A DNA stretch of 64,000 bases from Heterodontus francisci (lineage: Eukaryota). The notes under the pieces were generated by a model. It searched no databases. It was not told the origin of the DNA and saw nothing but the letters and a program-made list of their open reading frames with translations. The position numbers were made by a program, and so were the translations under genes. The stretch covers positions 82,283,658 to 82,347,657 of the forward strand of contig NC_090380.1 in NCBI RefSeq assembly GCF_036365525.1, given 5' to 3'. Shown one piece after another: positions 1,608 through 62,275 of the stretch. The first letter of the stretch is position 1. Every line of letters begins with the position of its first letter.

Positions 1608-1712
1608 TTGATATTGAATATGTACAAAGTACTGCAATAACCACAGACACCATGAGTGCAATTAGACTGACAACTGTCAGCATTATCCATGATAGTTTAT
1701 CACCGGCAGGAC
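1608..1712 (-). CDS. Transmembrane exon: (G)PAGDKLSWIMLTVVSLIALMVSVVIAVLCTYSIS
   Basis: 105-bp phase 1-1 exon with acceptor attctcaacag| and donor |gtaagt, in frame with the C1 exon. About 23 uncharged hydrophobic residues. Confidence 0.85.
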
Positions 1713-4890: not shown

Positions 4891-5196
4891 CTTGGTTACT
4901 AGCAGAAATCCATTCATTGATGGGTGCAGACAGTGTCGTGTGGTTCACCTGACAGGAATAATTTCCACCTTCATTCCAGTCAGATTCAGAAAGATTCAGA
5001 AAATTTGTGATGGAAAATGAGCCATCACTGTTTGCATGCAGGGTCCCATTTTTGGTGCCATTGGTGAATAACTGCCCACCTTTAAACCAGGACACTTGAA
5101 TGCCTTCAGGAAAGAACTCCAGTGATGTGCAGACTAGCTGTATACCTTCATTAGGGTAAGACAGAGTCTCTGCTTTTAACTGGACAGTTGGGCAAG
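4891..5196 (-). CDS. C1-set Ig domain exon
   Basis: 306-bp phase 1-1 exon with acceptor tgactttcag| and donor CAAG|gtaaga. (A)CPTVQLKAETLSYPNEGIQLVCTSLEFFPEGIQVSWFKGG...NSDGSFSITNFLNLSESDWNEGGNYSCQVNHTTLSAPINEWISASNQ shows the C1 hallmarks CxxxxF(F/Y)P, W, NxDGxF, W and YxCxVxH. Confidence 0.93.
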
Positions 5197-6900: not shown

Positions 6901-9900
6901 AACATAGGAACGTAGGAGCAGGAGTAGGCCATTCAACTGATCGAGCCTGTCCCGCCATTCAATATGATCATGGCTGATCATCCACTTCAATGCCTTTTTC
7001 CCACGCTAACCTCACATCCCCTTAAGTCATTTGTATTTAGAAATCTGTCAATCTCTGCTTTAAACATATTCAATGACTGAGCTTCCACAGCCCTCTGGGG
7101 TAGAGAATTCACAACCCTCTGAGGAATGAAATTTCTCCTCATCTCTGTCCTAAGTGGCCTCCCCCTTATTTTGAAATTGTGTCCCCTGGTTCAAGACTCC
7201 CCAGCCAGAAGAAACATCTTACCTGCATCTACCCTGTCTATCCCTTTAAGTATTTTGTAGGTTTCAATAAGATCACCTCTCATTCTTCGAAACTCTAGAG
7301 AATACAGGCCCAGTTTCCCCAATCTCTTCATAAGACAGTTCCGCCATTCCGGGAACAGGTCTGGTGAATCTTCGTTGCACTCCCTCTATGGCAATAATAT
7401 CCTTCCTAAGGTAAGGGGACCAAAACTGCACACAGTACTCCAAGTGCAGTCTAAGTGCAGTCGGCGCAGGCTTGGAGGGCCGAATGGCCTGTTCCTGTGC
7501 TGTACTGTCCTTTGTTCTTAACCAAGGTTCTATACAATTGAAGCAAGACTTCACTACTTCTGTACTCAAATTCTCTTGCGACAAAAGCTAATACTATTAG
7601 CCTTCCTAATTGCTTGCTGCACCTGCATGTTAGCTTTCAGTGACTTATTGACAAGGACACCCAGGTCCCTTTGTACATTTACACTTTCTAATCTCTTTCC
7701 ATTTAAGAAATACTCAGCATATCTATTCCTCCTACCAAAGTAGATAACCTTACACTTTTTCCACATTATATTCCATCTGCCACATTCTTGCCCACTCACT
7801 AAGTCTGTCCAAATCCCCTTGAAGCCGCTTTGCATCTTCCTCACAACACACATTCCCACCAAGTCATCCTCGAACTTGGAAATACTACTTTTGGTCCCCA
7901 CATCCAAATCATTGATATATATTTTGAACAGCTGGGACCCAAGAACTGATCCCTGTGGTACCCCACTAGTCACAGCCTGCCAACGCAAGAATGACCCGCT
8001 TCTTCCTACTCTGCTTTCTGCATGTTAACCAATCCTTAATCCATGCCAGTATATTACCTCCTACCCCATGTGTTTTAATTTTGCTAACCAATCCCTTGTG
8101 GGGGACTTTATTAAAAGCTTTATGAAAATACAAGTATACCATGTCCACCGACTCCCCTTTATCAATTCTTCTTTTGGGCCTCCTTATCTCGAGAGACAAT
8201 GGATACGCGCCTGGAGGTGGTCAGTGGTTTGTGAAGCAGCGCCTGGAGTGGCTATAAAGGCCAATTCTGGAGTGACAGGCTCTTCCACAGGTGCTGCAGA
8301 GAAATTTGTTTGTTGGGGCTGTTGCACAGTTGGCTCTCCCCTTGCGCCTCTGTCTTTTTTCCTGCCAACTACTAAGTCTCTTCGACTCGCCACAATTTAG
8401 CCCTGTCTTTATGGCTGCCCGCCAGCTCTGGCGAATGCTGGCAACTGACTCCCACGACTTGTGATCAATGTCACACGATTTCATGTCGCGTTTGCAGACG
8501 TCTTTATAACGGAGACATGGACGGCCGGTGGGTCTGATACCAGTGGCGAGCTCGCTGTACAATGTGTCTTTGGGGATCCTGCCATCTTCCATGCGGCTCA
8601 CATGGCCAAGCCATCTCAAGCGCCGCTGACTCAGTAGTGTGTATAAGCTGGGGATGTTGGCCGCTTCAAGGACTTCTGTGTTGGAGATATAGTCCTGCCA
8701 CCTGATGCCAAGTATTCTCCGAAGGCAGCGAAGATGGAATGAATTGAGACGTCGCTCTTGGCTGGCATACGTTGTCCAGGCCTCGCTGCCGTAGAGCAAG
8801 GTACTGAGGACACAGGCCTGATACACTCGGACTTTTGTGTTCCGTGTCAGTGCGCCATTTTCCCACACTCTCTTGGCCAGTCTGAACATAGCAGTGGAAG
8901 CCTTACCCATGCGCTTGTTGATTTCTGCATCTAGAGACAGGTTACTGGTGATAGTTGAGCCTAGGTAGGTGAACTCTTGAACCACTTCCAGAGCGTGGTC
9001 GCCAATATTGATGGATGGAGCATTTCTGACATCCTGCCCCATGATGTTCGTTTTCTTGAGGCTGATGGTTAGGCCAAATTCATTGCAGGCAGACGCAAAC
9101 CTGTCGATGAGACTCTGCAGGCATTCTTCAGTGTGAGATGTTAAAGCAGCATCGTCAGCAAAGAGGAGTTCTCTGATGAGGACTTTCCGTACTTTGGACT
9201 TCGCTCTTAGACGGGCAAGGTTGAACAACCTGCCCCCTGATCTTGTGTGGAGGAAAATTCCTTCTTCAGAGGATTTGAACGCATGTGAAAGCAGCAGGGA
9301 GAAGAAAATCCCAAAAAGTGTGGGTGCGAGAACACAGCCCTGTTTCACACCACTCAGGATAGGAAAGGGCTCTGATGAGGAGCCACCATGTTGAATTGTG
9401 CCTTTCATATTGTCATGGAATGAGGTGATGATACTTAGTAGCTTTGGTGGACATCCGATCTTTTCTAGTAGTCTGAAGAGACCACGTCTGCTGACGAGGT
9501 CAAAGGCTTTGGTGAGATCAATGAAAGCAATGTAGAGGGGCATCTGTTGTTCACGGCATTTCTCCTGTATCTGACGAAGGGAGAACAGCATGTCAATAGT
9601 CGATCTCTCTGCACGAAAGCCACACTGTGCCTCAGGGTAGACGCGCTCGGCCAGCTTCTGGAGCCTGTTCAGAGCGACTCGAGCAAAGACTTTCCCCACT
9701 ATGCTGAGCAGGGAGATTCCACGGTAGTTGTTGCAGTCACCGCGGTCACCTTTGTTTTTATAGAGGGTGATGATGTTGGCATCGCGCATGTCCTGGGGTA
9801 CTGCTCCCTCGTCCCAGCACAGGCATAGCAGTTCATGTAGTGCTGAGAGTATAGCAGGCTTGGCACTCTTGATTATTTCAGGGGTAATGCTGTCCTTCCC

Positions 9901-10810
9901 AGGGGCTTTTCCGCTGGCTAGGGAATCAATGGCATCACTGAGTTCCGATTTGGTTGGCTGTATGTCCAGCTCATCCATGACTGGTAGAGGCTGGGCTGCA
10001 TTGAGGGCAGTCTCAGTGACAGCATTCTCCCTGGAGTACAGTTCTAGGTAGTGCTCAACCCAGCGGTCCATCTGTTTGCGTTTGTCAGTGATTATGTCCC
10101 CCGATTTAGATTTGAGGGGGGTGATCTTCTTGATGGTTGGCCCAAGAGCTCTCTTCATGCCATCATACATTCCTCTGATGTTTCCGGTGTCTGAGGCCAG
10201 CTGAATATGACTGCATAGGTGTTGCCAGTAGTCGTTTGCGCAACGCCTAGCTGTTCTTTGTGCAGTACTTCTGGCTGCTTTAAGTGCTGCGGATGTTAAA
10301 TCGCTGGGGGCTTTCTTGTAGTTCAAAAGTGCAATGCGCTTAGCGGCTATGACAGGTTCCAGCTCTTCATTATGATGGTTCATTTTTATGGTAACAATGC
10401 TGTTAGTAAAATCCTCAAAAAACTCCAACAGGTTTGTCAAACCTGATTTCCCATTCATAAATCCATGTTGTCTATTCCCAATTAGATCATTATTATCCAA
10501 GTATCCATTTATCACAACCTTCAGAAGAGATTCTAGAATTTTCCCAATGACTGATGTAAGTCTAGGAGGTCTGTAATTCCCTGTTTTCTCCCTCCCTCCC
10601 TTCTTAAATAGTGGGGTGACATTTATGACCTTCCAATCTGCAGGAACCGCTCCAGAATTTATAGAAGATGATCACCAATGTATCCACTATCTCCATACCT
10701 ACCTCTTTCAACACACTTGGATGTAGAATATCAGGCCCTGGGGACTTATTAACCTTCAGCCCCATTAATTTTTCCAATATAACCTTATTACTAATACTAA
10801 TTTCCTTGTA
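6901..10810 (-). mobile_element. Degenerate CR1 LINE interrupted by an RTE insertion (CR1 parts ~6901-8169 and ~10390-10810)
   Basis: QHGFMNGKSGLTNLLEFFE on one side of the RTE continues as RIDKGESVDMVYLYFHKAF, SGVPQGSVLG and LEYCVQFWSP on the other. Confidence 0.85.
8170..10375 (-). mobile_element. RTE-clade LINE, 5'-truncated, uninterrupted RT ORF with C-terminal Cys/His finger
   Basis: About 720 open codons: KAPGKDSI, NYRGISLLS, QCGFR, FIDLTKAFD, GVKQGCVLAP, LFADD, YLGS, CSTCGRACHSRIGLYSH. Short 3' UTR with an A-rich repeat tail. Confidence 0.95.
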
Positions 10811-13145: not shown

Positions 13146-13505
13146 CTTCCACTGTGAGGCGTGTGCCTTTACCTATTGCTCTTCTAGCAGGGGGAGGTAT
13201 TTCAATAGAAACCTGACAGAAGTAAATGTCGGAGTTATTTAAACGAAGATCGTAGATTATGAAAGATGAGGATTTTGTTGAGAGATCCACTGAAATGTTA
13301 GTACGTTCTGTACAATGATTGAAAGAAGTAACATTAACTTTATTTTCTATATGTTGACAGAATTGTTGTGCACTGGTGTTCGTCTTCCATGTAATCCTCA
13401 ACTGTTCCTCTGTATCGCTGTATGAACAGTTCATTTGTGCGACGCCTCCCTTCAATACTCTGATCTCTGATGGTGTCTGGGAGACAGTTAGGTTTCTGCT
13501 TCTCA
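13146..13505 (-). CDS. V(J)-type Ig domain exon, CD28H/TMIGD2-, CD28/CTLA4- and NKp30-like, germline-joined
   Basis: 360-bp phase 1-1 exon with acceptor ttgttttttcttcag| and donor GAAG|gtgagt. Translation RSRNLTVSQTPSEIRVLKGGVAQMNCSY...LRITWK...FCQH...NHC...DLRLNNSDIYFCQVSIEIPPPARRAIGKGTRLTVE shows B-strand Cys, C-strand Trp, DxYxC and a J-like GxGTxLxV. Confidence 0.93.
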
Positions 13506-15123: not shown

Positions 15124-18100
15124 TGTTACATCTTTATGTTGTTTTTCTGGTTCCCAGATGTTGGAAAGAATCACACTTTAAATGTGGAAAAGGCTGGAGT
15201 CAGTCTTGTTTATTACAGCACCATGCTGTCTGCTATAGAACCTGATTTAGCTGGTTGTTGTGTAACATATAACATGATTCCTCAGTGCAGCTGTGAATCT
15301 GCCCCCCCCCCCCCCCCCCCCCCACTGGAACACTTACACATAAAAAACAGTTCCTAGCTAATTAGTTCCTAACACCTTACAGATAGTATAACAATATATA
15401 ACATATATAACATCCCTCTTTCTTTAAAATATAATGCCCTATATCAATATAACTGTCAATATAAATAAAGAAGATTATCATCTGACTTGTGGAAATAATC
15501 TGAACCCCTTTTTAGAGTCTATTATAGCGTGTATTCTTTTTTAAAAAAAATTATTCACGGTATCGCTTGGTTGGTAAGATGTTGTGACTCCATCTTGTAG
15601 ATTTGGCATTTCACAAGTGTTCTTTTGACCGTCTGGACGTGTCTTTCTATAAATCCATGTCCCCGTGGGTAGTGTGGTGATGAGGTGATGGTGTTGAACT
15701 CATACTGGTCAGCAAATTCCTTACATTTTCTGGATGTAAATTGGGTGCCATTGTCACATATTAACCTTTCAGGAATCCCTTGCTCAGCAAACAGAACTCG
15801 TACTGCTGAGATTATTGTTGTAGCTCTCAAGTCTTTCATCTTCTGGATAAAAGGGAATTCTGAGTAGTAGTCTGCGACTGTGAGATACCATTCTTGATTA
15901 CGTGTGAATAAATTGACTGCTACAGTATGCCATGGTTTGGGTGGTACTTCAGTAGCTATCATCTCCTCTTTCTGTTGTGAGTTTCTGTACTTCTGGCATA
16001 CATTGCATGTAGACACCATATTTTCAAAATCTTTGTATATGCCTATCCAGTACACAGCTGATTTGGCTCCCATATGGCCTTCGCGTATCTTTTGGAGAGG
16101 TTCTTCCTGCATTGCTTTGGGTATGATTATTATGCATCCGGTCAGCAGAACACCATCTTCGAGTGAGATGTCATCTCTGATAGACAGTACTGCCATATTG
16201 CTGGCTGTGTGTGCTGTATCTTATCAGGCCATCTCTGGATCACTTGCTGAGATAGCATCTGTACCTCATCGTCTTTGCTGGTCTCACCTCTAATTTGACT
16301 CAGTTTCGGTGGTGTTACGTTCACTAGGTGATGAATCTTTATGCTTAGATCTTCTATCTCATGTTTCTTCTGTGGTGACAACTGAGATAGGATGTCTGCC
16401 AGCACCATTATGCTTCCTGTTTTATATTTCAGAGTGAAATCATAACTCTGAAGCCTCAAGACTAACCTCTGCAGTCTTGCTGGTGCTTTACATAGATTTT
16501 TCTTGTAGATCTGCTCCAGTGGACGATGATCACTCTCCACAGTGAACTTCCTCCCATTGAGATATGTGTGGAACTTCTCACATCCATACACGACTGTCAA
16601 AAGCTCTCTCTCTATGTTGGCATATCATGTCTCAGCTGATGTCAGAGCTTTGGATGCAAATGCTATCCCTTTTGTACCAGGGCTGCTCCCAGTCCTTTTG
16701 TGGAAGCATCTACTTGTAGAGTGACAGGTTTCTTTCTGTCGCAGTACGACAGACTTGTCTCCTTGCATACTACCTTTTTGAGTTTGTTGAAACTCCTGTC
16801 ATGTGACTCTGACCACTGGTACTCTACAACTTCTTTCATCAGCTCCCGCAGGTTTGCTATGTGTTCCAACATGTGCAGAACAAAGGAACTCATGTATTGT
16901 ACCAAACCAAGGAAACTTCTCAACTCTCTCTTATCTCTTGGGGCTTCCATCCCTGAGATGGCTTCTTTCAGGGCTTGGCTTAACTCCATCAGATGTGTAC
17001 ACCATTCTGAAGAACTGACATTCTGTCACTTTCACAATGCATTTGTCTGCATTTAGCTTAATCCCAACTTTCCTGGTTCTCTCCATGGCTTCATGTCGAT
17101 GGTTGTCATGATCTTTTCCATCTACACCATATATCTGGATATCATCAGCTATGCTGCCTGCTCCTTTCATCCCCTGTATGTCTCGTCTACTTTCTGTTGG
17201 AACACATCCTGGGTCACTTTGAGGCCAAAGGGTAGACGCAGGAATTTGTATCGTCCAAAGGGTGTGTTGAATGTTGTCAACAGTGAAGATTCTGCTTCTA
17301 GCTTCACATTCCAGTAGCCATTTCTGGCATCCAGCTTGCTGAAAACTTTTGCCCTTGCCAGTGCTGGTGTGATTTCTTCCAATGTTGGAATAGGGTAGTG
17401 ATCCCTCTTTATTGCTTGATTAAGATCTTTGGGATCTAAGCAAATTCATAGCCATCCATTTGGCTTCTCTCTCACCACGATGGAATTTAACCAATCTGTA
17501 GGCTCTGTGACTCTGGTAATCACCTTCCTTTCTTCCATTTCTTGGAGCTCTCTTTCAAGTTTTCCTTTTAGTTCTACTGGTACTTTACATGGGGGATGAA
17601 TCACTGGGTTCATCACTGGGTCAATAGTGATGTGATACTCAAATCTTCAAAGCATCCAACCATCTCATCAAAACACCCTGGGTACATTTGTACCAGATCT
17701 TCTCTGCTTCTGATCAGAGGGGGCTTTTCAATGGGTGTACTGTCTTCAACCTTCAGTGTTGCCTCCTTCACCTCATGGTTTACTGAGATAATCTGCAGCT
17801 CTTCACAACTGCTCAACTCCAGGATAGCTGGACCATCTGTTTCTGTAACATAGAACATACAGTTAACATCATTTCCTTGTGTGTCCCTCTGATTTGGGTT
17901 GTTCCTCGCTGTCGAATCTCAGTTCCCCCATATGCTGTTAGCATGACGTTAATTGGTTTCAGAGCACCTTTCCTTGGATAACCATTTTTCTCCAAATTTT
18001 CAGGAAAGATCTTCTGGTATAGTCTGAGTTGGATGATGTTACTCTGCGCTCCAGTATCAATCTTCACCTTCAAATTTATCATTGTGGGCTTATTTCTCAG

Positions 18101-21900: not shown

Positions 21901-23909
21901 TCTATCTTCCTTAGTAAACACCAATACAAAGTACTTATTAAGTATTCTAAAAAAAAAGAAGGGTCTCTGACCTGAAATGTTAACTCTGCTTCTCTCTCCA
22001 CAGATGCTACCAGATCTGCTGAGTGTTTCCAGCATTTCTTGTTTTTATTTCAGATTTCCAGCATCCGCAGTATTTTGCTTTTATTTTAGTGTTTAATTCA
22101 CTGCCACTTCTCTTCCAGGAATGCCTACCTTGAAGAAGTTCTGCTCTTCTCTCCAACGGGATTTTCATTTGTCTCTTTTACCTTGTTCACCTTCATTGCT
22201 TTCTATTTCCCTCCTGGTGTTTGATAAGGTATCTACCAAAACTCGTTTTCACAGCTACATCTCCTTCCTCAGTGACTGTCTCTGGCTCCGACTTATTCCA
22301 CGTGGTTTCCATCTGCAGCCTCACCCATCATGTTTTGAATCCACCCAGGATGACAGGTATCTCCGAGAAATACAACGTTCCTCGGACTGCTATTCTCGCC
22401 ACATCCTGAGATCCACATTCAGTGCTATGCACCGCCACATGCACACACTGGGCCTCTCTCTCCAGCAGCACCGCCTCACCTTATCTCAAAGCTGTTCTAC
22501 TCCGCAGTTTTATTTCATCCTTCATCTCATCCGACGTATTAACAAAAAACTTTTTTCTTCCTTTCAGATGTCAAGGAACGCAAGCTCCAGATCCTTCTTC
22601 CCCTTCACTTCCCTCTGACCCCACCCCTTCTGCTCTGACCCCTTGCCCTGTATTCACTATACCCTCTGACCTTCCTCTCTCTGACGCTGAATGTTCTGTA
22701 CTCAGAAAAGGTCTCAGTTTAATCCCCTTACGTCCCCACCTCAATGAATTTTGCGTTCGGCATGACGTTGAGCTCTTCTTCCATCGCCTCCGGGCTCACT
22801 TCTTTGACCAGGAGTCCTCCCCCGATCAGTAGACCCATTCATCCGCCTCCAGCATTCTCCCTCTACCTGGACCCCTCCCACTGGCCTCTTACCTGCTCTT
22901 GATCTTTCATTGAAAACTGTCGGCGAGACATTGGTCATCTCAATTTCTCTGCCCCCCTCACTCACTCTAACCTGTCCCCCTCTGAACTTGCTGCACTCCG
23001 TTCTCTCAGATCTAACCTCGACATTGTCATCAAACCTGCAGACAAGGGTGGTGCTGTTATTGTATGGCGTACCGACCTCTACCTTGCAGAGGCTCAGCGC
23101 CAACTCTCAGACACTTCTTCCTACCTCCCTCTGGACCATGACCCCACCACCGAACATCAAGTTACTGTCCGCAGGACTGTCACTGACCTCATCTCCTCTG
23201 GAGATCTTCCCTCTGCAGCTTCCAACCTCATAGTCCCGCAACCCCAGACAGCCTGCTTCTACCTCCTTCCCAAAATCCACAAACTGGACTGTCCCGGCAG
23301 ACCCATTGTGTCAGCCTGCTCCTGCCCCACTGAACTTATTTCTTCCTATCTTGACTCTATCTTTTCTCCGCTGGTCCAGTCTCTTCCCACCTACATCAGT
23401 GACTCTTCTGATGCCCTACGTCATTTTGACAATTTCCAATTTCCTGGCCCCAACTGCCTCCTCTTCGCTATGGACGTCCAATCTCTCTACACCTTCATCC
23501 CCCACCAGGACGGTTTGAGGGCTCTCCGCTTCTTCCTTGAACAGAGGCCCAACCAGTCCCAATCCACCACCACCCTCCTCGGCCTGGCTGAACTTGTTCT
23601 CACATTGAACAACTTCTCCTTCAACTCCACTCACTTCCTTCAAATAAAAGGTGTTGCTATGGGTACCCGCATGGGTCCTAGTTATGCCTGTCTTTTTGTG
23701 GGATATTTCGAACATTCCTTGTTCCAGTCCTACTTAGGCCCCCTCCCCCAACTCTTTTTCCGGTACATTGATGACTGTATCGGTGCTGTTTCCTGCTCCT
23801 GCCCCGAACTGGAAAACTTTATCAACTTTGCTTCTAATTTTCACCCTTCTCTCACCTTTACATGGTCCATCTCCGACACTTCCCTTCCCTTCCTCGACTT
23901 CTCTGTCTC

Positions 23910-24257
23910 CACAGTGGCGCAGTGGTTAGCACCGCAGCCTCACAGCTCCAGGGACCCGGGTTCGATTCCGGGTACTGCCTGTGTGGAGTTTGCAAGTTCT
24001 CCCTGTGTCTGCGTGGGTTTTCTCCGGGTGCTCCGGTTTCCTCCCACAAGCCAAAAGACTTGCAGGTTGATAGGTAAATTGGCCATTATAAATTGTCACT
24101 AGTATAGGTAGGTGGTAGGGAAATATAGGGACAGGTGGGGATGTTTGGTAGGAATATGGGATTAGTGTAGGATTAGTATAAATGGGTGGTTGATGTTCGG
24201 CACAGACTCGGTGGGCCGAAGGGCCTGTTTCAGTGCTGTATCTCTAATCTAATCTAA
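23910..24257 (+). mobile_element. HE1-type tRNA-derived SINE inserted in the Penelope RT
   Basis: A box TGGCGCAGTGG, B box GGTTCGATTCC, CR1-like 3' end and (ctaat)n tail. Confidence 0.88.
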
Positions 24258-28802: not shown

Positions 28803-28866
28803 CTGCAATTAGAAAGACGTGAAGCAAAGCACAAAGTCTGATCACTTGTGTTCCCAAAGGTATCAT
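28803..28866 (-). CDS. Leader (signal peptide) exon of VJ-C1-TM Ig-superfamily receptor gene: MIPLGTQVIRLCALLHVFLIA(V)
   Basis: ATG at 28866-28864, hydrophobic 21-aa peptide, phase-1 donor GCAG|gtaaga. Splices in frame to the V exon (G+TG = Val). A pyrimidine-rich acceptor (tatcttcag|) at 28881 implies a further upstream exon. Confidence 0.75.
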
Positions 28867-31812: not shown

Positions 31813-32937
31813 TAAGGGAAAGTGTTGGCTGCCCCCTCCCTTCCTGCTCCACCCCTGCTTTTCAGCTGCTATCCATATACTTGGGAGCAAGTGCTGTGCC
31901 TTCATGATGGTGAGGTTGTGCTGGATGCAGCAGACCTTGACAAATTATGAAACAGACTCTGGAGAGTACTGCAGGGCACCTCTAGTGCAGTTTAGGCAGC
32001 GGAAGCATTGCTTAAGTCTCCCCAATGGTCTGCTTCATTACATTTTGAGTGCCAGAATGGCTCTCATTGTATGCATGCTGCTCACGTGTGCGTGGGTTAT
32101 GCACCAGAGTCATGAGCCAGGCGGTTAGCAGGTATATCCTGTCATCCAGTTTCTGGTTTCTTGTGGTGGCTCAAATGCTAATGGTGCAGCAGACTGCTGG
32201 AGAATAAAGGCATTATGACTGCTTCCAGGATTCCAGGCATTGACCTGCATGATGCACTGAGTATGGTGGCACACATGTTGGACACTGATGGAGTAGAACC
32301 CTTTGCCATTGTGGTACATCTCTGAATTCATATGCAGCATCCAGAAATTGACATACATGTAACTGATGTCTGTTAATCTGTTACTTGTGTATCAGTTGTT
32401 TAATTATATGCAGGTGGAGGGTGTTAATTGGGGGCTTACTTGAGCACTTATAAGCAGTCAATTACTGAGACTGGTGAAGGGTTTTGAGTGAGGAGTTACT
32501 TGTTTGTGATCCTTTTACTCCGCACAATAAATATGAAACCGAGTAAAGATAGGCTCCAGCATCATCCTTCCACAACAAGCTTTCTGCAATTTAACAATGT
32601 CATCATGCACCATGTGGAAACTCACTCCCCTGACAAAGTCGTGTCCTCGCTCTGCCTGCTTCTCTCAGAAAGAGAGAATGCAATGAATTCCTCTGCCTCT
32701 GCTTACAGAGCATCAGTGACCTCACTTATACAACATTGGACGGTGAACTGCAAGATTTTGGGAATCTCGCCTGCTGCAGGCTGGATGGAGCCCGACTCAA
32801 CAAGGTTCATGGCCACAGTCAGCTTTACAGTCACTGGCAACTCTGTTCTCACCCTGTTCTGAGGCCGCAGTTCTGCCTGCAATAGGGGACAGATTTCAGT
32901 GAGCACCTCCTTCGTGAAGCAGAAACATGCACACATT

Positions 32938-33190: not shown

Positions 33191-33454
33191 CACGGAACGG
33201 AATGCAAATGGAGTGCTAAATAGTTGTAGCGAATGTTCCTCACTGAGGTTGACACTGAAGAATTGCTACCTGAAGACCCTGTATATGGCCTCCTGCTAAA
33301 AGGTCTTCTTCCCCCTCCTCCTCCTCCTCCCTCTTCAAACAATGTCTCCTCCTCTGTGCCATTCTTGCCCATTCTCCCTGTCATGCTGCAAGCCAAGGCG
33401 TATTGAAACTATTGCACCCATGTCTGGGAGCAAGTGGTCTGACCAGAACCCATG

Positions 33455-35113
33455 AAGAGGTTCTTGAGCAAATTGGCATAGGGAGTGACAAGGTATTGGA
33501 GGTTTTGGAAGGCTTAAAAGTAAACAAATCTCCAGGTCTGGATGATTTGTGTCCCAGGATGCTGTGGGAGGCGAGGATGGAGATTGCAGGGGCTCTGACC
33601 CTAACTTTTAATTCCTCTCTAGCCAAGGGGGAGGTGCCAGAGGACTGGAGAACAGCTAATGTGGTCCCACTATTTAAGAAAGGTTGTAGAGATAAGCCAG
33701 GGGACTACAGACCAGTGAGTCTCACGTCAGGGGTAGGGAAACTATTGGAGAAAATTCTGAAGGGGAGAATCTATCACCACTTGGAGAGGCAAAATTTGAT
33801 TAGGAATAGTCAGCATGGCTTTGTCAGAGGGAGGTCATGCCTAACAAATTTGATTGAATTTTTTGAGCATGTGACCAGGTGTGTAGATGAGGGTAGTGCA
33901 GTTGATGTAGTTTACATGGACTTCAGCAAAGCCTTTGACAAGGTCTCACATAGGAGACTTATCAAGAAAGCAAATGCACATGGGATACAAGGTAACTTGA
34001 TAAGGTGGATTCAAAATTGGCTTAGCTGTAGGAGACAGAGAGTGATGACAGACGGCTGTTTTAGTGACTGGAAGCCAGTGTCCAGTGGCGTACCACAGGG
34101 ATCTGAGCTGGGTCCCCTTTTGTTTGTCATTTATATAAATGACATAGATGACTATGTGGGGGATAGGATCAGTAAGTTCGCGGATGACACAAAGATTGGC
34201 CGAGTGGTTAACAGTGAGGTGGAGTGTCTTAGGTTACAGGAAGATATAGATGGGATGGTCAAATGGGCAGAAAAGTGGCAGATGGAATTTAACGCTGAAA
34301 AGTGTGAGGTGATACACTTTGGAAGGAGTAATGTGACACGGAAGCATTCAATGAATGGCCTGACACTGGGAAGTTCCGAGGAACAAAGGGACCTTGGCGT
34401 GTTTGTCCATAGATCTCTGAAGGCAGAAGGGCAGGTTAATAGGGTGGTGAAAAAGGCATATGGGACACTTGCCTTTATCAATCGAGGCATAGATTACAAA
34501 AGTAGGGAGGTCATGTTGGAGTTGTACAGAACTTTGGTAAGGCCACAGCTGGAGTACTGTGTGCAATTCTGGTCGCCACATTATAGGAAGGATGTGATTG
34601 CATTGGAGGGGGTGCAGAGGCGATTCACCAGGATGTTGCCTGGGATGGACCATTTAAGCTATGAAGAGAGGTTGGATAGGCTTGTGTTGTTTTCACTGGA
34701 GCAGAGAAGACTGAGGGGTGACCTGATCGAGGTGTACAAGATTATGAGGGGCATGGACAGGGTGGATAGGGAGCAGCTGTTCCCCTTAGTTGAAGGGTCA
34801 GTTACGAGGGGTCACAAGTTTAAGGTGCAGGGCGGGAGGTTTCCGGGGGATTTGAGGAAGAACTTTTTTACCCAGAGGGTGGTGACGGTCTGGAATGCCC
34901 TGCCTGGGCGGGTGGTAGAGGCAGGTTGCCTCACATCCTTTAAAAAGTACCTGGATGAGCACTTGGCACGTCATAACATTCAAGGCTATGGGCCAAGTGC
35001 TGGCAAATGGGATTAGGTAGACAGGTCAGGTATCTTTAATGCATCGGTACAGACTCAATGGGCCGAAGGGCTTCTTCTGCACTGTATTATCCTGTGATTC
35101 TGTGATTCTGTGA
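33455..35113 (+). mobile_element. Young CR1 LINE, 5'-truncated, open RT ORF
   Basis: Uninterrupted ~520 aa: YRPVSLTS, QHGF, DFSKAFDKV, SGVPQGS, FADDTK, LEYCVQFWSP. (attctgtg)n 3' tail. Confidence 0.95.
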
Positions 35114-40212: not shown

Positions 40213-40772
40213 CCATATATTCTCGTGTAAAAGTCGCCCCATGACTTTAGGCCAAAAAATCTTGAATTTTTCCTATATCTCTTGTAAAAGTTGACCTTAA
40301 CTTTCAGAGCGCAGACAGAACATTCAAACTGCACACTAGTATAAATACCCGAGTGTTCACCTAGGACCCCAACATTTTTTCAATATGGCACCAAGGAAGA
40401 ATAACAAATACACAGTGCAGTTTAAACTAAAAGTCATTGCGTGTACAGAGAAGGCAAATAATTGTGTGGCAGCAAGAGAATTCAAAATATCAGAGAAGAA
40501 TGTCAGAGTTTGGAGAAAGCTTTCCACACAGCTCATGAAGATCCCAAAGAATAAAAGTGCCAATAGGGGAAAGTCTAGCAAGTGGTCGCAATTAGATGGT
40601 AAAGTTACAGAATGGGTTGCCAGAATGGATATGTAGTTTTCCATGCATCCATCCAACTCTATGTCCCATCTCCGTGGTTATTATTTTGTTCATAAAGGTT
40701 TGAAAATATGACTCCAAATTTTAGCATCAAAAATTGGTGTCAAAAATTCTACTTTTACTCTCGTATATATGG
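40213..40772 (+). mobile_element. pogo/Tigger-type deletion derivative keeping a Brinker-like DNA-binding ORF (40385-40636)
   Basis: TIR ccatatattctcgtgtaaaagt / acttttactctcgtatatatgg with TA flanks; YTVQFKLKVI...AAREFKISEKNVRVWRK. Confidence 0.85.
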
Positions 40773-51052: not shown

Positions 51053-52775
51053 TTTTTTATTCGTTCAGGGATGTGGGCGTCGCTGGCTAGGCCAACAATT
51101 ATTGCCCATCCCTAATGCCTTTGAGAAGATGGTGGTGAGCTGCCTTCTTGAACCGCTGCAGTCCTTGGGGTGCAGATACAACAGTGCTGTTAGGAAGCGA
51201 CAGTGAAGGAACAGCAATATATTTGGCTTGGAGGAGAACTTGCAGGTGGTGGTGTTTCCATGCATCTGCTGTCCTCGTCTTTCCAGGTGGTAGAGGCCGC
51301 AAGTTTGGAAGGTGCTGCCAAAGGAGCCTTGGCAAGTTGCTGCAGTGCATCTTGTAGATGGTGCACACTGCTGCCACTGTGTGTCATTGGTGAAGGGAGT
51401 GAATGTTAAAGGTGGTGGATGGGGTGCCAATCAAGGGGGCTGCTTTGTCCTGGATGGTGTCGAGCTTCTTGAGTGTTGTTGGAGCTGCACCCATCCAGGC
51501 AAGTGGAGTGTATTCCATCACACTCCTGACTTGTGCCTTGTAGATGGCTTTGGGGAATCAGGAGGTGAGTTACTCACCACAGAATTCCCAGCCTCTGACC
51601 TGCTCTTTAAGCCACAACATTTTATATGGCTGATCCAGGTCAGTTTCTGGTCAATGGTAACCCCCAGGATGTTGACAGTAGGGGATTCTGCGATGGTAAT
51701 ACCATTGAATGTCAAGGCGAGATGGTTAGATTCTCTTGTTTGAAATATTCATTGCCTGACACTTGTGTGTTGCGAATGTTACTTGCTACTTATCAGCCCA
51801 AGCCTGGATGTTGTCCAGGTCTTGCTGCATATGGACATGGGCTGCTTCATTATCTGAGGAGTCGCGAATGGTGCTGAACATTGTACAATCATTAGCAAAT
51901 ATCTCCACTTCTGACCTTATGATGGAGGGAAGGTCATTGATGAAGCAGCTGAGGATGATTGGGCCTTTGACACTACCCTGAGGAACTCTTGCAGTGATGC
52001 CCTGGAACTGAGATGATTGACCTCCAACAACCACAACCATTTTCCTAGTGCTCCAGTGGAGCATTTTCCCCCTGATTCCCATTGACTCCAGTTTTGCCAG
52101 GGCTCCTTGATGCCATACTCAGTCAAATGCTGCTTTGATGTCAAGGGCAGTCACTCTCACCTCACCTCTGGTGTTCAGCTCTTTTGTCCACATTTGAACC
52201 AAGGCTGTAATGAGTTCAGGAGCTGAGTGGCCCTGGCTGAACCCAAACTGAGCGTCAGTGAGCAGGTTATTGCTAAGCAAGTGCCGCTTGATAGCACTGT
52301 CGACGACTCCTTCCAACACTTTGCTGATGATCAGGAGTAGACTGATAGGGTGGTAATTGACTGGGTTGGATTTGTCCTGCTTTTTGTGCACAGGAATTAC
52401 CTGGCAATTTTCCACATTGCTGGGTAGATGCCAGTCTTGTAGCTGTACTGGAACAGCCTGGCTAGGGGCATATCTAATTCTGGAGCACAAGTCTTCAGTA
52501 CTATTGCTGGAATGTTGTCAGGGCCCATAGCCTTTACAGTATATAGTGCCTTCAACTGTTTCTTGATATCACATGGAGTGAATCAGAGTGGTTGAAGACT
52601 GGCATCTGAGATGCTGGGGACCTTAGGAGGACGCCGAGATGGATCATTCACTTGGCATCTCTGGCTGAAGATTATTGCAAATGCTTCAGCCTTATCTTTT
52701 CCACTGATGTTCTGGGCTCCCCTATCATTGAGGATGGGGATATTTGTGGAGCCACCTCCTCCTGTCAGTTGTTTA
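51053..52775 (-). mobile_element. CR1-clade LINE fragment
   Basis: NYHPISLL, QFGF, ALDIKAAFD, VPQGSV, FANDC. Confidence 0.85.
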
Positions 52776-56364: not shown

Positions 56365-58515
56365 ATTTTTTTTATTCTTTCATGGGATGTGAATGTCACT
56401 GGCAAAGCCAGCATTTATTGCCCATCCCTAATTGCCCTTGAGAAGGTGATGGTGAGCTGCCTTCTTGAACCTCAAAGTTATTGCGCAAAGTAGGAGCTCA
56501 TGGTGTAGTGGGTAACATATTAGCATGGATAGAAGATTGGCTGGCTGGCAGAAAACAGAGTATGCATAAATGGGTACTTTTCTGATTGGCAGGATGTGAC
56601 GAGTGGAGTCCTGCAGGGGTCTGTGCTGGGGCCTCAACTTTTTACAATTTATATTCCTGACTTATATGAGGAGAGCCATGGCATGGTAGCTAAATTTGCA
56701 GATGATACAAAGATAGGTAGGAAAGTACGTTGTGAAGAGGACATAAGGAGGTTGCAGACCGATATAGATAGGTTGAGTGAGTGGGCAAAAATCTGGCAGA
56801 TGGAATATAATGTGGGAAAATGTGTTGTTCACTTTGGCAGGAAGAATAAAAAAGCAGAGTATTACTTAAACGGGGAACAACTGTTGAATTCCAAGGTGCA
56901 GAGGGATCTAGGTGTTCGAGTGCATGAGTCACAAAAAGTTAGTATGCAGGTACAACGTAATAAAGAAGGCTGATGGAATGCTATCCTTTATTATGAGAGG
57001 AATTGAAAGTAAAAGTAAGGATGTTATATTTCAGTTATACAGGGCATTGGTGAGACCACATCTGGAATACTGTATGCAATTTTGGTCTCCTTATTTATGG
57101 AAGGATGTAAATACGTTGGAGGCGGTTCAGAGGAGGTTTACTAGATTGATACCTGGAATGAGCGGGTTGTCTTATTAGGAAAGGTTGGACAGACTGCCGT
57201 TTAGAAGAGTGAGGGGAGACTTGTTTGAAGTATATAAGATCCTGAACGGTCTTGACAGGGTGAATGTGGAAAGGATGTTTCCTCTTGTGGGTGAGTCCAG
57301 AACTAGGGTCACTGTTTTAAAATTAGGGGTCACCCTTTTAGGACAGAAACACAGAGAATATTTTTCTCGCAGACGGTTGTGCAACTTCGGAATTCTCAGC
57401 CTCAGAAGGTGGTGGAGGCTGGGTCATTGAATATTTTTAAGGTGGAGGTAGATAGATTCTTGTTAGGCAAGGGAATTAAAGATTATCGGGGGTAGATGGG
57501 AGTGTGGAATTCCAGACAGAAACAGACCAGCCATGATCTTATTAAATGGCAGAGCAGGCTCGACGAGCTGAATGGCCTACTTCTACTTCTAATTTGTATG
57601 GTCGTATGGTTTCTGCAGTCCGTCTGGTGTAGGTACACCCACAGTGCTGTTAGGAAGTGAGTTTCAGGATTTTGACACAGCGACAGTAAAGGAATGGCGA
57701 TATGGTTCCAAGCCAGGATGGTGTGTGGCTTGAAGAGGAACTTGGAGGTGGTGGTGTACCCATGTTTCTGCTGCCCTTGTCCTTCTAGGTGGTAGAGGTG
57801 CTGTCGAAGGAGGCTTGGCAAGTAGCTGCAGTGCATCTTGTGTATGGTACACACTGCTGCCATTGTGCACCAGTGGTGGAGGGAGTGAACGTTTACAGTG
57901 CTGAATGGGGTGCCAGTCAAGTGGCTGCTTTGTCTTGGATGGTGTTGAGCTTCTTCAGTGTTATTGGAGCTGCACTCATCCAGACAACTGGAAAGTATTC
58001 CATACACTCCTGACTTGTGCCTTGTAGATGGTAGAGAGGCTTTGGGGAGTCTGGAGGTGAGTCACTCACTGCAGAATTCCCAACCTCTGACCTGCTGTTT
58101 AAGTTACTGTATTTATATGGCTGGTCCAGTTATGTTTCTGGTTAATGGTAACCCCCAGGATGTTGATGGTGGGGGAATTCAGCAATGGTAATGCCATTGA
58201 ATGTCAAGGGGAGATGGTTAGATTCTCTCTTGTTGGAGATGGTCATTGCCTGGCACTTGTGTGGTACCAATGTTACTTGCCACTTGTCAGCCAAGCCTGA
58301 ATGTTGTCCAGGTCTTGCTGCATGCAGTATTTGAGGAGTTGTGAATGGTACTGAACATTGTGCAATCATCAGCGAACATCCCTACTCTGACCTTATGATG
58401 GTGGGAAGGCCATTGATGAAGCAGCTGCAGATGGTTGGGCCTAGGACACTACCCTGAGGAACTCCTGCAACTATGTCCTGGGACTGAGATGTTTGGCCTC
58501 CAACAAATACAATTA
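56365..58515. mobile_element. Nested CR1s: minus-strand element (~56365-56470 and ~57612-58515) interrupted by a plus-strand CR1 (~56475-57610)
   Basis: gccttcttgaac|...|ctgcagtcc is continuous across the insert (compare 51140-51165). The insert has SGVLQGSVLGP, FADDTK and LEYCMQFWSP. Confidence 0.8.
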
Positions 58516-59224: not shown

Positions 59225-61425
59225 CATGGAATCATAGAAAGTTTACAGCACAGAAAGAGGCCACTTGGTCCATTGTGCCTGTACCAGCCAAAAATCATTC
59301 CACACATTCTAATCGCACCAGCATTTGGTCTGTAGTCTCACAGATTACGGCACTTGAGGTGCATATCCATACTTCTTTTGAATGAGTTGAGGATTTCTGC
59401 CTCAACTACCCTTCAGGCAGTGAGTTCCAGACCTCCACCACCAGTTGGGTGAAGTCATTTTTCCTCATCTCCCCTCTAATTTTTCTGCCAACCACATTAA
59501 ACCTAGTCACTGACCTCTCTGCTAAGGTAAGTAGGCGCTTCACCTCCACTGTATCCAGGCCCCTCACAATTTTGTACATTTCAATCAGATCTCCCCTCAG
59601 CCTTCTCTATTCCAAGGAGAACAACCCCTGCCTATCCAATCTTTCCTCATAGCTGCATTTTTCCAGACCCGGCAACATCCTCCTAAATCTCCTCTGTACC
59701 CTCTCGAGGGCAATTGCATCCTTTCTGTAATGAGATGACCAGAACTTCACACAGTACTCAAGTTGTGGCTAAACCAATGAGTTATACAGTTCCAACATAA
59801 GCTCCCTGCTCTTATATTCTATATCTCGGCTAATAAAGGAAAGGATTCCATATCCCTTCTTAATAAACTTACCGAGCTGTCCTGCTACCCTCAGGGATCT
59901 GTGGACATTTACTCCAAGGTCCCTCACTTCCTCAATACTTCTCAGTATTTTCCCATTAATCGTGTACTCCTTTGCCTTGTTTGACCTCCCCAAATGCATC
60001 ACCTCACACTTCTCCAGGTTGAATTCCATTTTGCCACTTTTCTGCCCATCTGACCAGACCATCAATATCTTCCTACAGCTTACAGCTATCCTCCTTGCTA
60101 TGTACCACACAGCCAATCTTTGTGTCATCTGAAAGCTTCCTGATCATGCCCCCTACATTTACGTCCAAATTGTTAATATATACCACAAAAAGCAGGGGAT
60201 GCAGTACTGAACCCTGCGGAACGCCACTGGAAAAAGCCCTCCAGTCACAAAAACACCTGTCAACAATTACCCTTTGTTTCCTGCCACTGAGCCAATTTTG
60301 TATCCACCTTGCTGCATTTCTCTCGATCCCGTGGGATTTTATTTTTTTAACCAGTCTGCAACGTTGGACCTTGTCAAAAGTCTTGCTAAAATCCATGTAG
60401 ACCACATCAACTGCACTACCCTCATCTACCTTTCTTATTACTTCTTCAAAAAATTCCATCAAGTTGGTTAGACAAAATCTTCCCTTAACAAATCCATGCT
60501 GACTATCCTTGATTATCCTGTGCCTTTCTACGTGACAGTTTATCCTGTCTCTCAGAATAGATTCCAATAATTTGCTCACTACTGAGGTTAGACTGACTGT
60601 CCTGTAATTGGTTGGTCTTTCCCTCGCTCCCTTTTTAAACAGAGGTACAACATTAGCAGTTCTCCAATCCTCCAGCACCACACCTGTATCCAGTGAGGAC
60701 TGGAAAATGATGGTCAGACTTCCTCTATTTTCTCTCTTGCTTCTTTTAACAGCCTGGGGTACATTTCATCTAGCCCTGGTGGTTTATCAACTTTCAAGGG
60801 TGCTAATCCCATTAATACATCCTCTCTCCCTATGTTTATCACATCCAATGCTTCACACTCCTGTTCCCCTCTTTTGAGAAGACAGATGCAAAGTATTCAT
60901 TAAGAACAATACCAACATCTTCTGCCCCTATACATAGGTTATCCTTTTGGTCTTTTATGGCCCCTGCTCTCAACTTAATTATCCTCTTGCTCTTAATGTA
61001 TTGATAAAACATCTTTGGGTTCACCTTGATTTTGCTTGCCAATATTTTATCATGCCTTCTCTTTGCTTTCCTAATTTCCTTTTTGATTTCACCCCACCAC
61101 TTTCTACATTCCTCTCAGCTTTCTGTAGTATCGAATTCGTTGTGTCGGGCATAGGCTTTCCTTTTCTGCCTTATCTTACCCTGCAAGCTCCTTGACATGC
61201 ATGGGACTCTAGATTTGGCCGTCCCACCCTTTTTATTTGTGGGAACATGTTTACTCTCAACCCCTTGAATCCCCCCTATGAATGCCTCCCACTGCTCTGA
61301 CACTGATTTACCTTCAGACAACTGTTTCTAGTCCATTTTTGCTAAATCACTCCTCAGCTTAGTAAAATTGACCTTGCCCCAATTGAGAACTCTAACTCCT
61401 GTTCTATCCTTGTCCTTTTCCATAG
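59225..61425 (-). mobile_element. Degenerate CR1 LINE
   Basis: DWRTANVVPLFKKG, QHGF, DFSKTFDKV, SGVPQGSVL. Confidence 0.88.
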
Positions 61426-62275
61426 TTCCCTCCGTGACACCCTGGTCCACTCCTCCATTACCTCCACCAGCTCGTCCCCGTCCCATGGCACCTTCCCCTG
61501 CAATCGCAGGAGGTGTAATACCTGCCCATTTACCTCCTCTCTCCTCACTATCCCAGGCCCCAAACACTCCTTTCAGGTGAAGCAGCAATTTACTTGTCCT
61601 TCTTTCAATGTAGTATACTGTATTCGCTGCTCACAATGCGGTCTCCTCTACATTGGGGAGACCAAGCGCAGACTGGGTGACCGCTTTGCGGATCACCTCC
61701 GCTCAGTATGCAAGCAGGACCCTGAGCTTCCGGTTGCTTTCCATTTCAACGCTCCCCCTTGCTCTCATGCTCACATCTCTGTCCTGGGATTGCTGCAGTG
61801 TTCCAGTGAACATCAACGCAAGCTCGAGGAACAGCATCTCGTTTTCCAATTAGGCACACTACAGCCTGCCGGACTGAACATTGAGTTCAATAATTTCAGA
61901 GCATGACGGGCCCCCCATTTTACTTTTATTTTTAGTGATTTTTTCTTTTTTCTTTTTTACATTTTTTACAATTTTTTTCTTTTGTTTATTTCATTTCATT
62001 GTAGTTTGTTCAGTTTGCTTACCCACTGTTTTTTTTCATGTTTGTACTTGCTGCTGTTCAATCTTCAGTTCGTTAACACCCTATCTGTACTAATGCTTTG
62101 TCTTTTAGCACACCATTAACATATTATTTGCCCTTGCTCCGAAGAAGGGTCACTGACCCGAAACGGTAACTCTGCTTCTCTTTCCACGGATGCTGCCAGA
62201 CCTGCTGAGTGGTTCCAGCATTTCTTGTTTTTATTTCAGATTTCCAGCATCCGCAGTATTTTGCTTTTATTTTAT
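61423..62275 (+). mobile_element. Penelope 3' fragment (GIY-YIG + pLTR)
   Basis: NVVYCIRCSQCGLLYIGETKRRLGDRFADH; closely matches ~24700-25620. Confidence 0.9.

Follow-up and report, generated by a model that had tools for sequence, protein, structure and literature searches.

Binding to B7 through a PPP loop is established for CD28 and CTLA4; PD-1 and human TMIGD2, which have no PPP, also bind ligands of the B7 family. In the usual paired receptors the ligand-binding domain is homogenised, and a charged residue in the transmembrane segment (TM) couples to an ITAM adaptor of the FcR-gamma/CD3-zeta type. The SIRP plan joins a V-C1 layout with the pairing of an ITIM form and a charged-TM form. 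PRARP has a canonical J-like segment; Fu and co-workers are said to have described it in 2019 as a pair of genes whose tails carry ITIM/ITSM and which have the V-C1 form outside birds, bony fish among them. Xenopus VJC1 genes were reportedly described in the same year by Ohta and co-workers.

The CD28 family is defined by a single V domain, a TM and a tail together with synteny, for instance to the blocks fsd1/stap2, man2b/kiaa0232 and slbp/tacc3, and the tail motifs of its subfamilies are YxxM, YxN, YESF, YEDM and a double ITIM, according to PMC11599192. The same study gives E-I-P-P-P followed by GxG for chondrichthyan CD28H, CD28HL1 and CD28HL2 (Quiniou et al. 2024, PMC11599192). PRARP is a VJ gene linked to the MHC, and tetrapods are known to have several VJ-C1 genes (PMC10751288); UrIg is a secreted liver homodimer consisting of a VJ and three C1 domains (PMC12227049).

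Here, we present the computational analysis of a window of 64,000 nucleotides from Heterodontus francisci, the window being the whole stretch of DNA that was analysed, in which a preliminary description had pointed out a V domain with signatures of CD28, CTLA4 and TMIGD2. The CD28-type FG loop motif of that reading stood, but it had missed a C1-set exon, recognised by Pfam and joined to the V exon in a splice contig, and hence the locus is not a single-V gene. The motif EIPPP with GxG is already published and not new; the interest of this gene lies rather in its V-C1 architecture and in its paired, C1-homogenised paralogs.

A spliced, non-rearranging leader-V-C1-TM gene

The gene is a spliced, non-rearranging leader-V-C1-TM gene, of which four exons and the V-C1 splice were observed (Table 1). 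All four exons are canonical GT-AG exons in phase 1, and the cytoplasmic exon or exons lie outside the window. The in-frame translation of the V exon (13503-13147, P0001) contains YFCQVSIEIPPPARRAIGKGT as well as LRITW, FCQ and the second extra Cys, exactly the letters noted earlier, and Pfam assigned it to V-set (E 2.5e-12) and to ICOS V-set_2 (E 9.2e-10). The C1 exon is 60-78% identical to the C1 of the relatives P0002-P0011.

Table 1. Features of the gene, in positions of the 64-kb window
Feature	Position	Strand	Description	Evidence
Leader (signal peptide) exon	28803..28866	minus	64 nt, ATG to phase-1 donor	tblastn to N-termini of P0002-P0008, GT donor
V-set exon with germline-joined G strand	13146..13505	minus	360 nt, phase 1-1	flanking AG and GT
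Extra Cys pair	13312..13359	minus	Cys49 (13359-13357) and Cys64 (13314-13312), likely C'-C'' disulfide by the model	
EIPPP	13189..13203	minus	residues 101-105, end of F strand and FG loop	AlphaFold2 model, alignment
GKG (GxG bulge)	13165..13173	minus	residues 111-113, G strand	AlphaFold2 model
C1-set exon	4891..5196	minus	306 nt, phase 1-1	Pfam C1-set E 2.5e-18; splice sites; contig join
Stalk and transmembrane exon	1608..1712	minus	105 nt, uncharged type-A TM	tblastn to type-A relatives; splice sites

Evidence for splicing came from the runs X1-X3, which represent one sample whose RNA status is the guess of the tool. In a contig of 2129 nt with a depth of 66 (X1, record 2), C1 at record positions 1203-1510 abuts V at 1511-1873 with 0 mismatches, and the join skips a 7.9-kb intron. 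Such an exon-exon join is the expected product of a spliced transcript, and the contig was therefore taken as splice evidence. Its match continues for 3 bases beyond the V acceptor, as predicted from the end of the leader exon, and the depth in the bin of the TM exon is compatible with the same X1 contig. A run of another organism also contains 138 nt of the V exon, which stop at the same boundary.

At the V-C1 junction the protein reads E-A-C-P, with the Cys encoded at 5194-5192 (minus strand) at the start of the C1 exon. The relatives have A, Q, P, S, R or F at this position, never Cys. Since this Cys occurs only in the junction of Heterodontus francisci, it may be unpaired and able to form a dimer.

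Within the 64-kb window, tblastn with the relatives detected neither another V or C1 exon nor any exon of type B, its TM exon included. Among 141 upstream ORFs (of at least 65 aa) and 25 long ORFs, Pfam gave transposon-type families only besides the V domain, in a scan that exons shorter than 65 aa escape. Fragments of retroelement reverse transcriptases are located at 8221-10671, 22903-24102, 33274-35016, 51789-52517, 56533-56973 and 60073-60765, and an LTR-type remnant with reverse transcriptase, RNaseH and integrase lies at 15555-17419 inside the leader-V intron. Other debris of mobile elements includes a piece of a DDE transposase (32128-32391), a Brinker-type DNA-binding domain (40340-40633) and a weak GIY-YIG match (61346-61906).

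Structure and affinities of the V domain

The V domain was modelled with AlphaFold2 on 58 aligned rows (mean pLDDT 92.8). In the model the F strand spans residues 92-102, PPP lies in the loop at 103-105, and the G strand comprises 107-110 and 114-118 around GKG, so that the FG loop position proposed for the proline motif held. Cys49 lies inside the strand 47-54 and Cys64 closes the strand 59-64, which by register are facing positions of one hairpin. This placement would allow the two residues to bond, as the earlier reading implied, and they probably form a disulfide. The bond is supported by the occurrence of both Cys in 26 of 27 family rows and of neither in the remaining one, P0030. The IPPP motif is present in all 27 rows (the window gene and 26 relatives), and hence is not due to chance. 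The V domain (13147-13503) also has six N-glycosylation sequons, at positions 4, 25, 42, 57, 69 and 89. An early AlphaFold model based on 11 rows, with an unpacked G strand and a pLDDT of about 50, had given Foldseek matches to strand-swapped CTLA-4, which were discarded as a model artefact.

Two features of the CD28 family are thus found in this domain, the proline motif in the modelled CDR3/FG loop and a GxG in the G strand, here GKG. The extra Cys pair had been compared with CD28, CTLA4 and TMIGD2 alike; the comparison stands for TMIGD2 (spacing 15 vs 14) and fails for CD28 and CTLA4 (spacing 20 in two examples). The human TMIGD2 pattern given in the preliminary description is printed as such in Data Sheet 3 of PMC11599192, with LRVKW, LCQ, a Cys 14 residues on and VEIP. 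The rows of shark CD28H, HL1, HL2 and CD28X are without the extra Cys pair, as is shark CD28H in the alignment of PMC11599192.

Because its V is spliced to a C1-set exon and the family is one of single-V receptors, the window gene stands outside the CD28 family as defined. A true CD28-family costimulator or checkpoint, that is, a tenth member which binds shark B7 and in which a C1 domain was acquired or retained, is a possible but doubtful explanation, and one compatible with a paired receptor. It would account for EIPPP and GxG as in shark CD28H, HL1 and HL2, for the ICOS V-set match, for the Cys pair resembling amniote TMIGD2 and for the first rank of CTLA-4 in Foldseek, and the CD28 family does include ITIM members, as CD28HL3 indicates (PMC11599192). 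The single V/A-I-Y-S-L-L tail of the orthologs is nearest to this CD28HL3 ITIM. Against it stand, besides the single-V definition, a position outside every named subfamily in the tree and a framework no nearer to the family than to TCR-alpha; moreover, the YxxxxT motif is absent from the TM of the window gene, and YxxM and YxN are absent from the tails of the type-A relatives.

Among the best 150 of 834 profile matches, the non-family single V domains of at least 52 bits were of the CD28H, HL1, HL2 or CD28X types or unassigned proline-loop domains, and several of these match the published CD28-family motif table letter for letter. A PDB sequence search gave TCR-alpha with 46.9 bits and human CD28 with 38.5 bits. 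When the FG loop and the G strand were removed from the profile, CD28H (maximum 46.7, median 42.3 bits) and TCR-alpha (47.8 and 41.1) were tied; CD28X, HL1 and the tandem-V group were also tied, and CD28, CTLA4 and ICOS dropped to 18-30 bits. The likeness to CD28H resides only in the FG loop and G strand.

In a V tree of 69 rows and 120 columns, 15 V-C1 rows fell on one side of a branch (78/80) and were placed weakly on the CD28-family side (77/63), inside no named CD28 subfamily. The outgroup labels of this tree, whose rows were drawn from the matches of the same profile, are our own assignments by motif. AU tests rejected none of the alternative sisters, i.e. TCR/Ig (p 0.128), SIRP/NKp30 (p 0.211) and CD28H (p 0.181). 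With the 58-row model, Foldseek ranked CTLA-4 first, tied with Fabs and TCRs, and VIA-align ranked a TCR V first (Z 16.1) with CD28 at 15.0. The ESM Atlas returned generic V-set clusters, the top one automatically named PD-1 family (0.96), to which we give no weight as support. The proposal that the best matches would lie within the CD28/NKp30 group therefore holds for the top-scoring V domains outside the family, which are CD28H, HL1, HL2 and CD28X, and less cleanly for the structural ranks, in which CTLA-4 ties with Fabs and TCRs, and for the tree and AU tests, which are compatible with TCR/Ig and SIRP/NKp30.

Regarding the C1 domain, UrIg2 and IgG CH3 were the best among the PDB alignments listed, and the domain is of the antigen-receptor type. 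Identity with UrIg or UrIg2 was ruled out, as the window gene has one C1 followed by a TM. The automatic database names of the orthologs differ and include Ig kappa, lambda, SIRP-alpha-like and tapasin-related. A germline-joined or orphan Ig light chain or TCR chain, as some of this annotation implies, agrees with the V-C1 layout and with TCR-alpha and UrIg2/IgH as the best PDB matches for V and C1 among the alignments listed; it is nevertheless disfavoured and very improbable in view of two paralogs conserved across sharks and rays, an own TM and tyrosine-motif tail, and an invariant FG loop in place of a variable CDR3, with no F/W-GxG. A rearranging Ig light chain or TCR is ruled out by the single exon running through the G strand, the IPPP in all 27 rows and the lack of F/W before GxG.

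A SIRP-like or NKp30-like paired receptor with a convergent proline loop is likewise improbable. The layout and the presumed pairing would match the SIRP plan, some of the automatic names read SIRP-alpha-like, and the AU test did not reject this sister; on the other hand, these names are inconsistent among orthologs, and the rows that we labelled SIRP-like and NKp30-like scored lowest of the receptor groups both with and without the FG loop (maxima 34.9/32.0 and 38.2/33.4 bits).

Family range and the type-A and type-B paralogs

In the initial homolog search, all ten matches came from elasmobranchs, carried both a V and a C1 domain according to Pfam and had a V identity of 57-70%. A V-profile search of 1.84 billion representatives gave 834 matches at E 0.001, of which the best 150, down to 52.6 bits, were considered. 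Combined with two word-based searches, this led to at least 26 V-C1 relatives, namely 20 of elasmobranch type including one skate-like protein, the lungfish protein P0119 and five further proteins with 28-39% V identity; the half-V model P0056 and the divergent V-C-V-C protein P0072 were excluded from these counts. The lungfish protein and the five further proteins retain IPPP, and five of these six have a YxxL/V/I tail. The GxG of the G strand is lost in lungfish and in several non-elasmobranch or other relatives. Since the family occurs in sharks, rays and lungfish, it is older than the split between sharks and bony fish.

The literature and the text of the supplements searched contained no account of the V-C1 family. 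The main threat to novelty is orthology to PRARP/VJC1, of which the gene may be the shark form. If it were the cartilaginous-fish ortholog of the described non-rearranging V-C1 family (PRARP or Xenopus VJC1), the novelty would be confined to the shark copy and its link to the motif. The VJ-C1 genes documented in tetrapods (PMC10751288) speak for this explanation, to which we give a small chance: F/W before GxG is absent here, lungfish and several relatives have lost GxG as well, and the matches of the word-dependent searches comprised no named tetrapod V-C1 protein, five relatives carrying no name. Neither an EIPPP loop nor shark members are reported for PRARP/VJC1 in the literature searched, to which the original PRARP/VJC1 reports do not belong.

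Several further proteins were observed alongside the family. P0030, whose tail carries YTLL, has the V-C1 form and belongs to neither type A nor type B. P0028, P0039, P0047, P0048, P0050 and P0062 are tandem two- to three-V receptors with an extra Cys pair and a (K)PLP/PVP FG loop, some with tyrosine motifs in their tails; the 5 rows tested form a clade close to the CD28H group with 98/98 support, and these receptors have the highest median score on the A-F framework. The single-V protein P0105, with KIPPP, GNG and two ITIM-like motifs, reached 78.5 bits as the best non-family match when the V profile was widened, and may represent either another CD28-like receptor or a relative that has no C1. 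In P0072 (V-C-V-C-TM) the loops read I(S/L)PPP and the C1 domains are degenerate (28.8 bits); this protein is possibly a divergent, duplicated member of the V-C1 family. In P0142, a multi-Ig protein of 654 aa, one V domain ends in an EIPP-like motif, a weak match of 17.9 bits. The Scomber protein P0019 was ruled out as a teleost V-C1 member, being V-V with no C1 score.

Within the V tree, a type-A clade of 12 rows including the window gene (99/99) is split from type B. The tail ends in YxxL in 10 of 11 type-A relatives (VIYSLL in four, AIYSLL in three, and three variants), the remaining model being incomplete; the residue two positions before the Tyr is A or T, not V/I/L/S, in six of these ten tails. 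An Arg near the outer end of the TM was found in all six type-B models having a TM vs one of nine type-A TMs. Three of the nine type-B models have no TM and both skate type-B tails end in NNYTSL, a YxxL, and for these reasons the term 'activating' is less secure than 'inhibitory'. In all four species with both values, the longest contigs for A and B are equal in size, which suggests that the two genes may be neighbours in the genome.

Within a species, the identity between A and B is 44-63% for V and 81-100% for C1 (V/C1: Carcharodon 55/94, Scyliorhinus 56/100, Pristiophorus 63/96, Mustelus 48/98, Hemitrygon 44/81). The C1 tree clusters by species or order, unlike the V tree, and AU tests rejected both the monophyly of type A on C1 (p 2e-7) and the pairing by species on V (p 9e-23 and 2e-59). 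A single common history of V and C1 is thereby rejected. Most likely, the C1 of A and B has been repeatedly homogenised by gene conversion within each lineage while V was kept distinct. Two C1 copies under gene conversion are favoured over one shared exon because the ends of the C1 sequences are not the same in A and B. Co-folding of the type-A and type-B ectodomains of the catshark, run without alignments, scored 0.05 vs a mark of 0.34 and speaks neither for nor against their pairing.

Proposed function and comparison with known systems

We regard the gene as probably an inhibitory member of an ancient germline VJ-C1 paired-receptor system, presumably a leukocyte surface receptor. In the proposed mechanism, the rigid proline FG loop (EIPPP) of the V domain would meet a cell-surface ligand, as CD28 and CTLA4 meet B7, and C1 would act as a stalk setting the height of the receptor or as a shared docking surface. 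One predicted cytoplasmic ITIM, expected for the window gene from the tails of its orthologs, would recruit SHP-type phosphatases. The type-B paralog would balance type A through its TM Arg, which could couple to an ITAM adaptor (FcR-gamma/CD3-zeta type). PPP by itself is no demonstration of a B7 ligand, and by analogy a B7-family protein is a tentative candidate for the ligand of the V domain, with the odds somewhat against it. The mode of action may resemble that of a CD28-family checkpoint or of a SIRP-type paired receptor; the architecture is known here from exons and contigs.

In its widest form the reading is that of an undescribed germline VJ-C1 receptor pair predating the split of sharks and bony fish, with a CD28H-type loop, a framework equidistant from TCR-alpha and CD28H and an antibody-type C1, which would be a link that has survived between costimulatory and antigen receptors, would add a membrane-bound protein to the candidate relatives of the gene split by the RAG transposon, and would show a reversed gene conversion, with C1 homogenised and V kept distinct. 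This we consider rather unlikely.

Independently of this reading, a V-C1-TM gene that has a loop of the CD28H type and occurs in sharks, rays and lungfish offers a concrete test case for such questions. The databases conceal it behind the names of Ig light chain, SIRP and tapasin proteins. The homogenisation of C1 in one lineage after another, between two paralogs with distinct V, is a clean and testable instance of concerted evolution.

Compared with the known systems, the gene is closest in its loop to CD28H, CD28HL1 and CD28HL2, with which it shares YxCxxxxEIPPP followed by GxG and which provide the top V scores outside the family (55-68 bits). These are single-V receptors with YxN or YESF tails and an identity of about 27-36% to the window V, whereas the window gene has a C1 domain and, in its orthologs, an ITIM-like tail. 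Amniote TMIGD2 has a similarly spaced extra Cys pair. CD28, CTLA4 and ICOS resemble the gene in the PPP of the FG loop, in the first extra Cys in the C' strand and, for CTLA4, in the GxG, but the gene has no MYPPPY, its second Cys comes earlier (15 vs 20) and a C1 is added. UrIg and UrIg2 share a non-rearranging shark VJ exon followed by a C1-set exon, and give the highest scores for a single C1 domain in the PDB alignments listed (34.9 and 34.4 bits); the window gene differs in its single C1, its TM, the tyrosine-motif tail of its orthologs and its range to lungfish. PRARP and VJC1 are likewise non-rearranging V-C1 membrane genes of the IgSF, and PRARP is said to form a pair with inhibitory motifs; the canonical FGxG is missing here. 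Finally, as in SIRP-alpha/beta, LILR and Siglec-5/14, there would be an inhibitory and a charged-TM paralog, most likely homogenised by gene conversion, with the ITIM-like tail in A and the charged TM in B, skate type-B tails also holding YxxL. In contrast to these paired receptors, it is the C1 that is homogenised here, and the membrane-distal V stays distinct.
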